Below, piece after piece: positions 15,467 through 21,211 of a stretch of 64,000 bases of DNA. The notes under the pieces are model-generated. The model saw only the letters and a program-made list of their open reading frames with translations, searched no databases and was not told where the DNA came from. Numbering within the stretch: position 1 is the first letter of the stretch; each line of letters begins with the position of its first letter. The translations under genes and the position numbers were made by a program. This DNA is from Spirochaetia bacterium (GTDB taxonomy: Bacteria > Spirochaetota > Spirochaetia > DSM-27196 > Salinispiraceae), in NCBI GenBank assembly GCA_038204425.1, contig JBBRCZ010000007.1, positions 75,341 through 139,340 of the forward strand. The letters run 5' to 3'.

Positions 15467-16306
15467 CTATTTTTTCTTCTCAAAGCGAGTAGCTGCTGTT
15501 GCGTAGATATTCCAAACATGGCCGTCCATACGCCTTTGATCCAAGACTAGCTTTTTTGCCTGAGCTTGCCATGACTCTGGAAGTCCCGCAAAATCTTCTT
15601 GGCTGTACAAGCCTAGCCAGTCAGGGCCGTAGATCAGACGCAGAGCACCCTGAGGGTTAAATCGCAGTTGGTAAAGCACGAGTTCAGTATCCGCTGTCCA
15701 AGCAAGACTTTTGCTCTCTTGGCGATAGTCCAAGTTCCAAACCCACTTTTGCACGGTTGGCTGAGCTTGAGCTTCGCCCGTCAGCCCTTGGCCGGTACCC
15801 TCTTGATTAAGCGCTAAGGAAACACTTGCAATCGGTCGGTCGCCAGCCTCAGCTGTCACTGCTTTCATAGAAAGAGAAGCCAGGTTCGACTGAAACAGGG
15901 CTGCACTCACAAACCAAAGCGTGAGCACAAGGAAAAGACTTGGCCACCATAGCCATGTCAAAAGCGTGGAAACTAGTGCCGTAGACAAAAAACATAAGAT
16001 CAGCCAGACCCAGGCTGGCTCTGTTTTGGCAAACAGGATTGCCATGGTCAGCACAGCGCCACAGGCCAGCGCCATTAGCACCATTGACAAACCGCGCCAT
16101 ACCGAGCCTGGGGGTGCAGAGTTTGGCACCCGATCTAAACTGGCGCCAAGCCCAGACAAGCGCGCCAGACCACGGCTACGGCGTAGTATCAAGATAGCTT
16201 TGATACTAAAACCCAATCCTGCGCCAGCGCAAAGGCCAGCTAGACTGGCCCAAAATTCGGCCTGACTGGCTAGTCGAACTATGGCTTGCAAAAAATCAGA
16301 GATCAT
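15467..16306 (-). CDS. Hypothetical membrane protein
   Basis: About 4 TM segments plus a soluble C-terminus; start overlaps the upstream carboxypeptidase stop. Confidence 0.6.
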   Translation of the reverse strand: MISDFLQAIVRLASQAEFWASLAGLCAGAGLGFSIKAILILRRSRGLARLSGLGASLDRVPNSAPPGSVWRGLSMVLMALACGAVLTMAILFAKTEPAWVWLILCFLSTALVSTLLTWLWWPSLFLVLTLWFVSAALFQSNLASLSMKAVTAEAGDRPIASVSLALNQEGTGQGLTGEAQAQPTVQKWVWNLDYRQESKSLAWTADTELVLYQLRFNPQGALRLIYGPDWLGLYSQEDFAGLPESWQAQAKKLVLDQRRMDGHVWNIYATAATRFEKKK

Positions 16307-17846
16307 ACAGTTGAGTATACTTACGATTGAGGTAATTCATAAACGGTTGATGATCCAAACGCACCCCACAAACTTCTTGTACCAACTCTGATGGCAATAC
16401 AGCCGCTCCAGGTTGATGAATCTTGCTGCACAGCCAGTTCTTGAGCGGTAAGAATTGACCTTGTCCCACCTGGGCCTCCAAGTCTGGAATGTCATAGCTG
16501 GCTTGTTGGTAAAACATGGCAGCATAAAGGTTGCCCAAGGCATAGGTGGGAAAGTAGCCAATGCTGCCCATCGACCAGTGAATGTCTTGCAAAACACCTT
16601 GGCTATCAGTCGGTGGAACTATGCCCAGCAGTTGGCGGCTTTTTTCTCGCCAGGCCTCACTGAGATCCTTGACCTCAAGCTCACCACGCATAATGCCAAG
16701 CTCCAATTCAAAGCGCAGCATTACATGCAGACTGTAGGTTACCTCGTCAGCGTCAACGCGAATAAAGCTGGCCTTGACCCTGTTGGCTGCTTGGTAGATT
16801 TCTTGCAGACTGAGTCCAGCAGTCTCGGGCAAAAAGTTTTGTAGTTGTGGCAAAAAGTGGCCCCAGAAGGCACGACTTCGGCCAACCATATTCTCCCAAA
16901 GCCGCGACTGGCTCTCGTGAATGCCAAGCGAGCAGCCGTTTGATAGCATTAGGTGCAAATCAGGGTGCACGCCAAGTTCGTAAAGCGCATGTCCTGCCTC
17001 GTGAACTATGCTCGATATGCCGGCAAAGAAGTTTTTTTGGTCATAACGCGTAGTGATACGCACATCTTTACGGCCCACCGTTGTGGTAAAAGGGTGTGCA
17101 GATACATCCAGCCGCCCACTATCTGTTGGGTAGTGCATAGCTGCGAGAATAGCCCTACCAAGTTGTTCCTGGCCAGCTTGCAAAAAGTTTTTGCCAGCTA
17201 GCGCATCAAAAGCATAAGCAGGTGAGCTCGACTTTTGCCCGATAGCCGCCACCAAAGGCACCAGTTGCTCGCGCATTTTTGAAAACACGGTGGCTATTTC
17301 TGCAGCGCCCATGCCCGGTTCGTACTCGTCAAGCAGCGCATCATAGGCTTCGGCGCCGCCCCCAACGAGACTAGCTTCTTGCCGTTTGAGTTCTATCAGT
17401 TTTGAGAGGTAAGGTGCAAAATGAGCAAAGTCATTGGCATGTCGGGCCTTGATCCAGTTAGCTTGACCAAGACTTGCCGCAACCGACAACTGACTCACAA
17501 AGTCGGCATTTAAACAGGCCGCTCGCCGGTGGCTGCGCCCGAGAGAGCGCAACAAACGTTGGTCTGCCCAGCTAAGCTGCTGCGTGCCAAAAGGCCTTGC
17601 TGGGCTTGCACCCAGCTCGTCCAAACAACGCGCCATTTCGTCTCCAGCCAAGCGCTCATGCATCAAGCGCGCCAAGAGTGCCTGCTGCTGGGCGCGTTCA
17701 TCAAGAGCGGCTTCGGGCATATAGGTTTCTTGATCCCAGCCAAGTAAAGACGAACTATGGCTCAAGAGGCCAATTTCATCAGCAAGTTGGGCTGCCCGCT
17801 TGAGAGCAGCTGGGGCATCTCCTGCGTGTTTATAACGTTGACTCAT
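16296..17846 (-). CDS. M32 metallocarboxypeptidase (carboxypeptidase Taq family)
   Basis: [49 protein letters not shown] and GYFPTYALG. Confidence 0.95.
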
Positions 17847-19624
17847 AACAGTTTAAGTCCTTCTTTGCTAGCAATTTTGTCTTTGGCGAGCACTATAAAA
17901 TCACTCAGGGCAACAGCATTGGCCTGTTCATTGGTGCGGGTTCGGATAGAGACAGTGCCCGTCTCAAGTTCCTTGGCACCGATGATGAGCATGTAGGGCA
18001 CTTTGACGGCCTGATGCTTACGGATTTTGTTCTGCATCCTGTCCTCGCTGAGATCAGCTAGGCAACGCAAGCCCTCGGCCTTAAGCGCTTCAGCAATCTT
18101 TTGTGCACCAGCCTCAAAGTCAGGCCCGACTGGAATTACCACAACTTGGGTAGGAGCCAACCAAACCGGAAACGAACCAGAAAAGTGTTCAATCAAAATT
18201 CCAATAAAACGTTCAAGGCTTCCCAAGACGGCGCGATGCAGCATAACTGGGTTGCGTCTCACGCCTTCGTTGTCTATGTAGCCAGCGTCCAGTCTTTCCT
18301 TGCTGGGCAGTTGATAGTCCAATTGGATGGTACCGCACTGCCACTTGCGCCCCAAGGCATCAATCAAAGTAAACTCAAGTTTGGGACCGTAGAAGGCACC
18401 CTCCCCAGGGGCTTCAAGATAGTCAAACCCTGCCGCTTTACAAGCTAAGCCAAGCGCAGACTCCGCTCTATCCCAGCTTTGGTCGTCGCCTAAGCGGACC
18501 TCTGGTCGCAGGGCAAGCCTAACCAAGACGTTCTCGCCAGTAAATCCAAAATCCGCATACATTGAACTCAAAAGTTCACAAAAATCTTTAACTTCGGTTT
18601 GGACTTGTTCTTCAGTACAAAAAATATGGGCGTCATCTTGCACAAATCCCCTAACCCGCATGATGCCATGTAAGGCCCCCGAGGCTTCGTTGCGACAACA
18701 ACTGCCAAATTCTGCCATGCGCAACGGCAAGTCACGATAGCTCTTGATACCTTGGCGAAAAATCTCAATATGGCCTGGGCAGTTCATCGGCTTAAGCGCA
18801 AACTCACGCTTTTCGCTTTCGGTAACAAACATATGGTCGCGGTACTTTGCCCAGTGGCCAGATCGCTCCCAAAGGCTCTTGGGCATAACCGAGGGAGTTT
18901 TGACCTCCTGATAGTTAGCAATGCGCAAACGGTTGCGCACGTAGTCTTCTATGCTGCGGTAAATTGTCCAGCCGTCCGGATGCCAGTAAATTTGCCCTGG
19001 ATTGTCGTCGTCGATATGAAACAAGTCCAAGTCTTTGCCCAGCCGTCTATGATCACGACGTTCGGCTTCTTCCAAAAATTGCAGGTATTCTTTGAGCTGT
19101 GGACCATTGTGAAAACAGTAGGCATAGATTCGTTGTAGCATCGGGCCTTTTTCGTCACCACGCCAGTAGGCGCCTGCAATCTTGGCCAGCTTAAAACTGC
19201 CGCTATCCAGCACGCCCATGTTGTCCACATGAGGCCCGCGACAAAGGTCGACAAAAGCGTTGCTGTAGTAGAGGCTAATTTCTTCGTCATCAGGTAGCTT
19301 GTCCAGCAGATCTTGTTTGTAAATTTGTCCTTCAAGAACCTGTCGTGCCTCGGCCTTGCTGACCGCCTTGCGTATAAAATCAGAACGAGTTTTGATGATT
19401 TCCTTCATCTTAAGCTCAATGGCTTCAAGATCCTCGGGCTTGAGACTGCGTGACAGCTCAAAGTCGTAGTAAAAACCGTTGTCCACTGGCGGACCTATGG
19501 CTATCTGGCCATCTGGAAATAGTTGTAGGACAGCTTCGGCCATAATGTGAGCCAGGCTATGACGTTTTTTGTAGAGCGCTTCATCTTTGGCAAGGCGTTC
19601 TTGGGCGGCATGAGTTAAAGCCAT
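17843..19624 (-). CDS. thrS: Threonine--tRNA ligase
   Basis: [56 protein letters not shown] and [16 protein letters not shown] 19624 follows GAGGAGG. Confidence 0.97.
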
Positions 19625-19950
19625 GCGAGACCTCCTCGTGCACCTAGTGCACACAGCAAATGCTGCGTAAGGACGAAGAACAAAGTCCTCCGCGGTCCCA
19701 CCTTACTTCAAAACAGGCTCGATACCTGCCGCCCTCGTCGTCTGTTACGTAGACCAACGGTCTCCCATACTCGGCATGCACAACCGTTCTATCAGATCCA
19801 ACAGTAAGCAAGCGCCTTTGAGCGAGACAGCTCTGGAGTGGTTTTGGCTTCTATCGTTCCCAAGTCCCTTCCAGCCACTTGTGCACTGCGCACAACCTGG
19901 GAACTCTCTCTCGCGGGTCGTTTTAGAGCTACTCTTCTCCTTCGTAGCCG
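19625..19950 (-). ncRNA. T-box riboswitch, Thr (ACC specifier)
   Basis: Stem I with GA motif, AGTA, AGAGA and GCTG; specifier ACC (19840-19842); stem II with AGTA; CCGTT F-box; stem III; T-box AAGGTGGGACCGCG (19691-19704) pairing with CGTCCTT (19669-19675). Confidence 0.93.
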
Positions 19951-19959
19951 ATAAGGCCT

Positions 19960-19988
19960 ATAGTAACCCTACGAGGCGAGACTGGCAA
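19960..19988 (-). promoter_or_regulatory. Sigma70-type promoter of the T-box-thrS unit
   Basis: TTGCCA-17 bp-TACTAT directly upstream of stem I. Confidence 0.65.
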
Positions 19989-20080
19989 GCCACCTGTTTA
20001 GACACTACAATTAGACGTAATGGATCTTTACCGTATCGTTATTCGATGATATGCTACGGTGCTCGGAGGGGTTGTACTTC

Positions 20081-21211
20081 ATGAAGACTGTCATTTTTAG
20101 CAGCAAAGAAGCAGAAATCAAGGATGTTCTGCTGCTCTCAACCTCGTTTGACATCAAACTATTTACAGAAAAAGTCTACTTTGCAGAAAATGAAGCCGAT
20201 GCCGACTTGGTGATTGTAATTGACAAGGATGTCTACGACGTTCTGCCTGCCAATCTCATTACCGCCATTACAACCAGAATTCGCAAAACACCGTGTCTGG
20301 TTTTGGTACATTTCAGGATGGCAAGCGAGCAATCTGAGCCCTACAAAGAACTTGGACTCAGCCTCTTTCACTATGAAAAAGGCTCGCCTGTTTCGCAAGA
20401 AAACCTAATTACCCAGATCGAAAGTTTGGCGGAACGCACCACTTTGTACCGGCGCCTGGATTCATATATTCGCGACTCGTTTAGAGACATAGTAGACTCG
20501 AGTCTGCTACAAAAACAAAAAGAAGAAATTGAACTGCTCAACCGCAAACTGGAATACATTAGCCGCGTCGATCACCTTACCAACCTGCTCAATCGCCGAG
20601 CATTGCTCGAAGCTTTTGAACTAGAAAAAAGACGCGCTCTGCGCAATCGCTGGCGCCTCAAGCAAGTTGGCGGTTTTGGCGATCCCGACGAAGGCAAGTC
20701 AGTAAGTGAAGAGCTGAGAGAATTTTCGCATGCCAGCAAGGGCACCATTACTGAGCACATTGGCAATTTTGCCTGCATGATCATGGACATTGATCACTTT
20801 AAGCTGGTAAACGACAGTTACGGCCATTTGATTGGCGACAAAGTTTTGCATCACATGGGCGAACTGCTCAACCAAAAAGGTTTGTTTAGAGACTGTGATG
20901 TCAAGGGCCGCTACGGTGGAGAAGAATTTATTGTACTCTTGTCAGAAACCAACAGTGCTAATGCACTGATTCCGGCCGAACGACTGCGTAAATTGCTCAA
21001 AGAGACCACTTTTGAAGGCGAAGCAGGTCAGAAGTTTAATGTTTCGCTGAGCATAGGCATTGCTGAGTTCTTGCCAGAAGAAGTAACCAGCGAAGAAATG
21101 ATTAAACGAGCGGACCAAGCCCTCTACTATGCAAAGGAACATGGCCGCGACCAAATATGTATCTACGAACGCGTCAAGGGCCAACTCTCAGCCCTTGAGC
21201 ACGGACATTGA
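20081..21211 (+). CDS. Diguanylate cyclase (GGEEF) with degenerate N-terminal domain and coiled coil
   Basis: DHLTNLLNRR, DIDHFKLVNDSYGHLIGD, RDCD (I-site)...RYGGEEF, RADQALYYAKEHGRD; ATG 20081 follows GGAGGG. Confidence 0.92.
   Translation: MKTVIFSSKEAEIKDVLLLSTSFDIKLFTEKVYFAENEADADLVIVIDKDVYDVLPANLITAITTRIRKTPCLVLVHFRMASEQSEPYKELGLSLFHYEKGSPVSQENLITQIESLAERTTLYRRLDSYIRDSFRDIVDSSLLQKQKEEIELLNRKLEYISRVDHLTNLLNRRALLEAFELEKRRALRNRWRLKQVGGFGDPDEGKSVSEELREFSHASKGTITEHIGNFACMIMDIDHFKLVNDSYGHLIGDKVLHHMGELLNQKGLFRDCDVKGRYGGEEFIVLLSETNSANALIPAERLRKLLKETTFEGEAGQKFNVSLSIGIAEFLPEEVTSEEMIKRADQALYYAKEHGRDQICIYERVKGQLSALEHGH

Follow-up and report, generated by a model that had tools for sequence, protein, structure and literature searches.

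A full-length threonine T-box without a terminator upstream of thrS in a spirochaete, with a predicted role in translation initiation

Introduction

How would a T-box leader that carries no terminator control the gene for threonine-tRNA ligase in a spirochaete? In T-boxes, Stem I grips the anticodon and elbow of a tRNA, and the UGGN sequence pairs only with the 3' end of an uncharged one. To our knowledge, the translational T-boxes tested so far are confined to one gene in one phylum, the actinobacterial ileS.

Translational T-boxes were predicted for actinobacterial ileS in PMC1262725, and their reversibility is disputed: the review PMC7583486 treats their states as interconverting, whereas the single-molecule work on Mycobacterium tuberculosis ileS describes the rearrangement as large and nearly irreversible (PMC12647780). 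For TBDB, the search for class II elements is described as covering Actinobacteria and matches with truncated Stem I, and sequestrators were not predicted (PMC7778990). The leader analysed here lies in a window of 64,000 nucleotides, the whole stretch of DNA under study, on the minus strand between thrS and a divergently oriented GGDEF gene; the genome carrying the window (G000) is hereafter called the host genome.

The thrS leader contains a full-length T-box

Run in E-value mode, the Rfam model RF00230 matched positions 19954-19666 (-) over model positions 1-219, that is, the full model, with 66.4 bits and an E-value of 3.2e-14, which bears out the proposal, made from the letters alone, of a full-length Thr T-box with specifier ACC before thrS and gives the outcome of the Infernal search suggested with it. 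This score falls under the RF00230 gathering score of 93 bits, which is why a default Rfam scan of the window at gathering scores returned zero matches. The match in the thrS leader was the only significant one to RF00230 across the host genome. The regulated gene (thrS, 17843..19624, -) encodes a threonine-tRNA ligase of 593 aa, identified by its Pfam domains and by TIGR00418 (675 bits, cut-off 384); a TGS domain was not found among the Pfam domains of this 593-aa protein, and its relatives are similar in length. Judged from its sequence, the element is a genuine member of the T-box family with a class I-type aptamer.

A putative sigma-70 promoter (-35 TTGCCA, 17 nt, -10 TACTAT) was located by consensus scan at 19960..19988 (-); the scan gave 3 sites with 3.7 expected by chance and is weak alone. 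TTGAC-type hexamers were seen by eye at a similar distance upstream of the T-boxes of many relatives, and transcription presumably starts near 19953 (-). The promoter-like sites of both strands overlap near 19982-19988, and some 60 nt separate the start of the divergent GGDEF gene (20051..21211, +) from the putative thrS promoter. On the other side of thrS, a gene for an M32 carboxypeptidase (16296..17846, -), recognised by its Pfam domains, begins with an ATG that overlaps the thrS stop codon (ATGA, 17846-17843), so the T-box may govern the peptidase too, by coupling.

The long Stem I (19830..19948, -), delineated by the RF00230 alignment and a constrained fold, comprises basal K-turn-type GA motifs, the specifier loop, the AG bulge and the apical T-loop. 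At the Rfam specifier position stands ACC (Thr; 19840..19842, -), the partner of the anticodon of tRNA-Thr(GGU); this cognate tRNA, with U73, is encoded on contig C2 of the host genome, and the ACC context is present in 75 of 79 leaders checked. Fold and sequence place an extra 6-bp hairpin (19879..19895, -) within the apical loop of Stem I; the GGCUGGAA T-loop (19876-19869), which is retained, follows on its 3' side. The Rfam alignment assigns 19740..19828 (-) to Stem II, with an S-turn (CAA/AGUA) and a long insert, followed by the IIA/B region, whose bases, read from the sequence alone, are compatible with a pseudoknot. The purine string and Stem III occupy 19712..19736 (-) in the RF00230 alignment. 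A run of four U lies directly 3' of Stem III, upstream of the bulge (19730-19708, -), and might serve as a pause site, though not a switchable one.

The antiterminator or antisequestrator (19667..19706, -) is defined by the RF00230 alignment, folding and covariation. Helix A1 has 6 bp (19706-19701 with 19672-19667), helix A2 has 8 bp (19693-19686 with 19680-19673), and the 7-nt T-box bulge UGGGACC (19700-19694, -) separates them. The view that all T-box hallmarks are present stood for the aptamer, specifier, AG bulge, T-loop and antiterminator; it did not for loop E, where AGUA is kept and the GAA strand reads CAA in both Stem I and Stem II, nor fully for the bulge, whose UGGG offers U73 of tRNA-Thr(GGU) only a G.U wobble, a pair that TBDB permits. 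The GAA to CAA change in Stem I also occurs in several relatives.

Between A1 and the gene, two spacer hairpins (19638..19666, -) are predicted in both states, one at 19666-19653 (5 bp) and one at 19652-19638 (6 bp); these, the apical hairpin and the other motifs quoted in the sequence-only reading are all where that reading had placed them. Sequence and folding then give a Shine-Dalgarno (SD) motif GAGGAGG (19637-19631), 30 nt downstream of helix A1, and a C-rich spacer (together 19625..19637, -). No hairpin followed by a U-tract was found between the bulge and the AUG, as had been claimed, and the sole window with 6 of 8 U falls inside helix A2; the leader lacks the intrinsic terminator that serves as a criterion for class I T-boxes. 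U-tract terminators were counted at 69 of 1006 ORF ends in the host genome, against 1-3 in three shuffles. The expression platform (19712-19612) is structured beyond its composition (z = -4.6), with 0 of 200 shuffles equally stable.

A spirochaete host and the spread of T-boxes in its class

FlaA is a marker of spirochaete flagella. Four matches to FlaA (PF04620) over the cut-off were found in the host genome, on contigs other than that of the window, and none in 14 control genomes. The best named ThrRS relative among the matches listed belongs to a Spirochaetales MAG (69%); 79 of the 80 listed ThrRS loci are not named as spirochaetes, being mostly proteobacterial, and these 79 were excluded from the leader set described below. 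The UvrB encoded in the window is 69-70% identical to those of two genomes of the same family. These data support the earlier suggestion of a spirochaete host, and given the FlaA matches together with the best named ThrRS relative among those listed, we reject a Firmicute.

The host is not an unusual one, as had been thought. RF00230 found matches in 39 of the 99 genomes from the order (5 above the cut-off) and in 76 of 151 genomes sampled from the class (15 above it), so T-boxes are frequent in the class and the host genome is an ordinary place for one. Among the matches listed, nearly all class T-boxes that we inspected lie upstream of thrS. A second, high-scoring T-box (L113, G053:C20:62364-62601; 110.8 bits) has specifier AUC and a compact terminator and precedes a gene other than thrS, which may be ileS. 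That about half of the sampled class genomes carry T-boxes differs from an early survey, Table 3 of which gives no T-boxes in 6 spirochaete genomes (Wels et al., PMC2494555), and from the account of Sun et al. (PMC3766115), in which T-boxes are described as confined to Firmicutes, Actinobacteria, Chloroflexi, Thermus/Deinococcus and Geobacter. Our literature search found no paper on spirochaete T-boxes; those above the Rfam cut-off may well be present already in the Rfam or TBDB tables.

Terminator-less leaders and the ThrRS tree

For comparison we assembled at least 173 distinct T-box thrS leaders from genome loci and from a metagenome pattern scan, which contributed at least 119 stretches with a pattern biased toward short leaders. 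Identical bulge-to-start sequences were merged, and leaders with N near the switch were dropped. The U-tract (terminator-type) controls are the 129 leaders with a window of at least 6 of 8 U, 52 of them from genome loci of the host's phylum and the remainder from unclassified contigs. Fifteen leaders without a U-tract share one ThrRS type with the host genome and are called clade leaders; they are kin, not independent cases. The others comprise 7 leaders without a U-tract elsewhere, 21 unclassified ones and a single terminator-type member of the clade (L352 of genome G703).

In a quick ThrRS tree of 53 rows, the host ThrRS nests in family f17, and that of G703 is sister to all terminator-less members (SH-aLRT 97-99); the origin of translational control was thus probably a terminator. 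The thrS expression platform, as far as the sequences tell, probably descends from a terminator-type leader within the same ThrRS clade. The same quick tree places further terminator-less leaders in genus g4 and family f12 and next to the terminator-type G017, and these scattered positions suggest several origins. Six metagenomic leaders (L173, L187, L217, L249, L271 and L276) have a terminator whose 3' strand includes the SD, with the U-run between SD and start codon; they are possible intermediates that act as both terminator and sequestrator. In three terminator-type spirochaete thrS T-boxes (L121, L123 and L137), helix A2 carries insertions of 60-150 nt.

Constraining the host ThrRS to five ThrRS of its own family was rejected (p-AU 4e-6, 20 rows) in a topology test that was post hoc to the first tree and omitted G007 and the divergent G002 copy. 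The host ThrRS is 64-69% identical to those of 10 of 12 f17 genomes and 62-64% identical to those of 6 of 7 own-family genomes, and the affinities of UvrB lean the opposite way, towards the own family. It is likely that thrS and its leader were transferred together, probably from the f17 lineage to the host.

The antiterminator remains the consensus fold of the 15 terminator-less clade leaders. Of its 17 consensus pairs, 14 of them in A1/A2, 10 show two-sided changes, and this covariation indicates that the element is not in decay. In the upstream DNA covered, the thrS copies of three f17 genomes (L293, L295 and L302) showed no bulge motif; one of them sits on a short contig end, and for L293 the stretch ahead of the conserved motif is just 388 nt long. 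Genome G678 has another thrS start that carries a T-box (L333).

A rough pattern parse, which covered 44 of 53 U-tract leaders and 8 of 15 clade leaders, gave apical inserts in Stem I in 21 and 3 of these, respectively. The apical hairpin is, on this comparison of sequences, a lineage trait unrelated to regulatory mode, and we rejected it as a mark of the translational mode since terminator-type relatives have such inserts as well.

A predicted switch between the bulge and the start region

Free folding of the platform gave a minimum free energy (MFE) of -43.8 kcal/mol, against -38.3 kcal/mol with the antiterminator forced. Both the MFE and the centroid structure correspond to a fold in which 19637-19634 pairs with the A1 3' strand (CCUU:GAGG, around the two small hairpins) and 19632-19625 pairs with 19701-19694, the bulge. 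This SD-sequestering OFF fold is predicted to be exclusive with the antisequestrator and more stable, with a gap of 1.0-8.4 over 16 windows, and its pairing of bulge with spacer has P 0.71-1.00 in 16/16 windows. Blocking UGGN alone flips the predicted structure to the antiterminator. The bulge duplex (-12.9) ranks 3/777 and 4/1010 among start regions of the host genome, in sets that probably include thrS itself, and stands out against shuffles with p 0.035 and 0.018.

We compared the ensembles of the 15 clade leaders and 130 U-tract leaders in windows reaching to AUG+15. Helix A2 was kept in 12/15 clade leaders and 5/130 U-tract leaders, the A1 3' strand lay on the SD in 12/15 and 0/130, respectively, and UGG lay on the start region in 13/15 and 13/130. 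An opening gain at the ribosome-binding site (RBS) of at least 2 kcal/mol was predicted for 14/15 clade leaders versus 25/130 U-tract leaders, and the median OFF-ON gap was 7.4 versus 14.1. With windows ending at the AUG, 6/15 clade and 35/130 U-tract leaders reached the same gain.

The two helices of the OFF fold fared differently across the clade. Pairing of A1 with the SD reaches 67.8% versus 61.0% in shuffled alignments (4/500), with covariation at 8/500, values of a kind that related sequences attain in 5-25% of null cases. Ranks within genomes favour a swap helix in the host genome and in G052 (2/28), G692 (1/56) and G643 (2/62), the last two ranks being those of the A1:SD helix and the kin genomes being partially sampled; in partial samples of G624 and G726 there was no enrichment among their own start regions. 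For the bulge helix, a single fixed register for the whole clade was rejected, as it was no better than shuffled (65.3% versus 64.2%, 145/500) and showed one two-sided change. L138 and L198 have the same bulge helix as the host leader in the same register, with U-A replacing G-C, and these are the three of 15 clade leaders that beat their own synonymous shuffles. In members of genus g236 the partner of the bulge slides to codons 2-5, a pairing that C-rich composition explains. Clade leaders L033 and L291, whose fold differs, do not form the bulge helix; a hand-drawn bulge helix for L033 was discarded, not being the MFE structure.

The predicted range of the switch depends on how much of the gene is folded: across windows, the RBS opening gain of the host leader runs between -1.0 and +5.8 kcal/mol. 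When Stem III was fixed and the bases upstream were kept unpaired, the gain was 5.5 for a transcript that stops at the AUG and 2.5, 0.8, -1.0 and 0.1 for longer ones, about zero once 10 or more coding bases were added, since in the ON fold local hairpins lie over the start. One hairpin around the start codon (GCAUG with CAUGC, 19627-19607, -), which the tRNA-bound fold is predicted to contain, may restrict the regulatory range.

The last base of UGGN is A, Watson-Crick to U73, in 1/15 clade leaders versus 106/129 U-tract leaders, and tRNA-Thr(GGU) has U73 in the host genome and in 5/5 kin. The shift fits either a second role for this base or weaker tRNA sensing. UGGG also occurs in 4/129 U-tract leaders, and for this reason we do not take it as proof of compensation.

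Among the seven terminator-less leaders outside the clade, a gain of at least 2 kcal/mol was predicted in 1/7, and their pattern differs from that of the clade. The three from genus g4 (L004, L005 and L006) have no U-tract, and in 2/3 a local hairpin about 110 nt after the antiterminator covers the SD in both predicted states. For L150 the folds predict a clear switch, in which the bulge pairs near the AUG; for L145, L216 and L012 they predict none.

Proposed mechanism

The folds suggest the following course of events. In the absence of uncharged tRNA, helix A2 would remain intact and A1 alone would open. The A1 3' strand (CCUU), thus released, would form pairs with the SD's 5' half; the bulge (GUGGGACC), likewise freed, would pair with the final two bases of the SD plus the entire spacer up to the AUG. 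Since the bulge would pair with the SD-AUG spacer, the NCCA end of the tRNA and the start region would compete for the same bases. Uncharged tRNA-Thr would reclaim the bulge, A1 would re-form and the start region would be released, the effect being greatest at the time the start codon is transcribed.

In agreement with the first reading of this locus, translational control is the likeliest mode. Taken broadly, to include also the other sequestrator and the ribosome-gated Rho termination weighed below, control of a translational type appears likely to us. That the T-box acts at translation initiation specifically through the exchange of A1 and the pairing of the bulge is a narrower claim, for which we see the chances as evenly balanced. 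More tentative, and taken as a whole rather doubtful, is a wider proposal: that translational thrS T-boxes of spirochaetes are independent of those in Actinobacteria and had more than one origin from terminator-type ancestors, and that in the clade of the host the bulge would serve as an anti-RBS and the start region would imitate the tRNA 3' end from within the mRNA, competing for UGGN. Such a mimic is literal in L138 and L198 (ACCA) and has a wobble version in the host leader.

Other explanations

The sequence-only reading had drawn another sequestrator. In it helix A2 is undone, and GGACUU/CUUCGU forms a duplex with ACGAGG/AGGUCU that spans the SD completely; such a helix would descend directly from the terminator helix. 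Its 12 pairs can be drawn and bury the SD fully, the A2 3' strand that it uses forms the terminator in relatives, and it ranks 41/777 and 48/1010 among start regions of the host genome. Its energy of -34.2 kcal/mol is nevertheless above that of the forced antiterminator, and over 16 windows the fold sits 6.6-12.9 kcal/mol higher than the ensemble; in 16/16 windows it has a probability of no more than 0.001, and it requires the second small hairpin to be shortened from 6 to 4 bp. Nor does the clade favour it: the median duplex is -6.0 in terminator-less and -8.0 in U-tract leaders, the covariation check suggested earlier gave pairs in 59.0% of cells of the 15-row alignment versus 58.4% when shuffled (219/500), and it was top-ranked in only 2/6 genomes tested. 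We consider this version of translational control improbable as the working switch; its place in the top 5% of start regions means that it may form as a transient fold. A third possibility within the same regulatory logic is Rho-dependent termination as the main output: the fold of the leader would control the loading of ribosomes or uncover RNA for Rho, and transcripts would end in early thrS. Rho is present in the host genome (TIGR00767, 707 bits), the first 100 nt of thrS contain 30 C versus 20 G, and coupling of this kind has been described for an M-box (PMC12810186). The C excess in thrS is small, though, the leader, with C 54 and G 82, is rich in G and structured, and the Rho route would probably still require an SD switch upstream; it seems only marginally less improbable than the sequestrator just described.

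Somewhat easier to entertain, although still unlikely, is a T-box that binds tRNA but exerts its effect on mRNA processing or stability, or one whose regulatory range is small. The ON fold retains hairpins over the start, so that the range predicted can shrink to nothing; the Watson-Crick partner of U73 is rare in the clade, the loop-E strands have changed, and the three f17 thrS copies mentioned above come without a bulge motif. Against this, A1 and A2 retain compensatory changes across the terminator-less clade, and A1 is lost in the tRNA-free ensemble (AUG+15) of 15/15 clade leaders, which implies two states. Transcription attenuation by a hairpin without a U-tract we regard as very unlikely: the multi-branch OFF fold is stable enough, to judge from its z value, but it is complete only at the AUG and no U-tract follows, the host genome does use U-tract terminators, and the energy gap of the U-tract relatives is far larger than that of the clade.

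Comparison with known T-boxes

With the class I transcriptional T-boxes (RF00230; Bacillus subtilis thrS, tyrS and glyQS) the host leader shares the long Stem I, AG bulge, apical T-loop, Stems II and III, the 7-nt bulge between A1 and A2, a synthetase as target and the specifier ACC, which according to TBDB Table 1 is that of 60% of Thr T-boxes (PMC7778990). It differs from them in the missing terminator and U-tract, the two CAA strands of loop E, the apical insert, the score of 66 bits and the smaller OFF-ON gap. Closer relatives in its own class, the terminator-type thrS T-boxes (L352 of G703, and those of G001 and G002), resemble it in aptamer, gene, apical inserts and the hairpins within the OFF helix; in them, unlike what is predicted for the host leader, A2 is opened by the OFF helix, at whose end a U-tract stands, upstream of the SD.

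The class II translational T-boxes of actinobacterial ileS (M. tuberculosis, Nocardia) are similar in that SD sequestration replaces the terminator (PMC1262725), in a small energy gap, that of M. tuberculosis ileS being given as smaller than that of glyQS (PMC11297988), and in a possible co-transcriptional window (PMC12647780). The host leader differs in being of the Thr rather than the Ile type, in preceding thrS rather than ileS, in belonging to a spirochaete and in having a long rather than a short or intermediate Stem I, which section 6.2 of PMC7583486 says is kept by 'a few' translational T-boxes. The M. tuberculosis switch, by its description, is a large rearrangement into a long stem-loop (PMC12647780), whereas for the host leader A2 is predicted to be kept and the bulge to act as anti-RBS.

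Our literature search found no fold with the bulge as anti-RBS, and a bulge that doubles in this way would, if true, be a new switch design working with small energy steps. It would make the leader a low-barrier, reversible switch that leaves A2 intact and travels between lineages together with thrS. The terminator-type and terminator-less Thr T-boxes, placed on one tree and built on the same long Stem I, form a natural matched pair for the shift from transcriptional to translational control.
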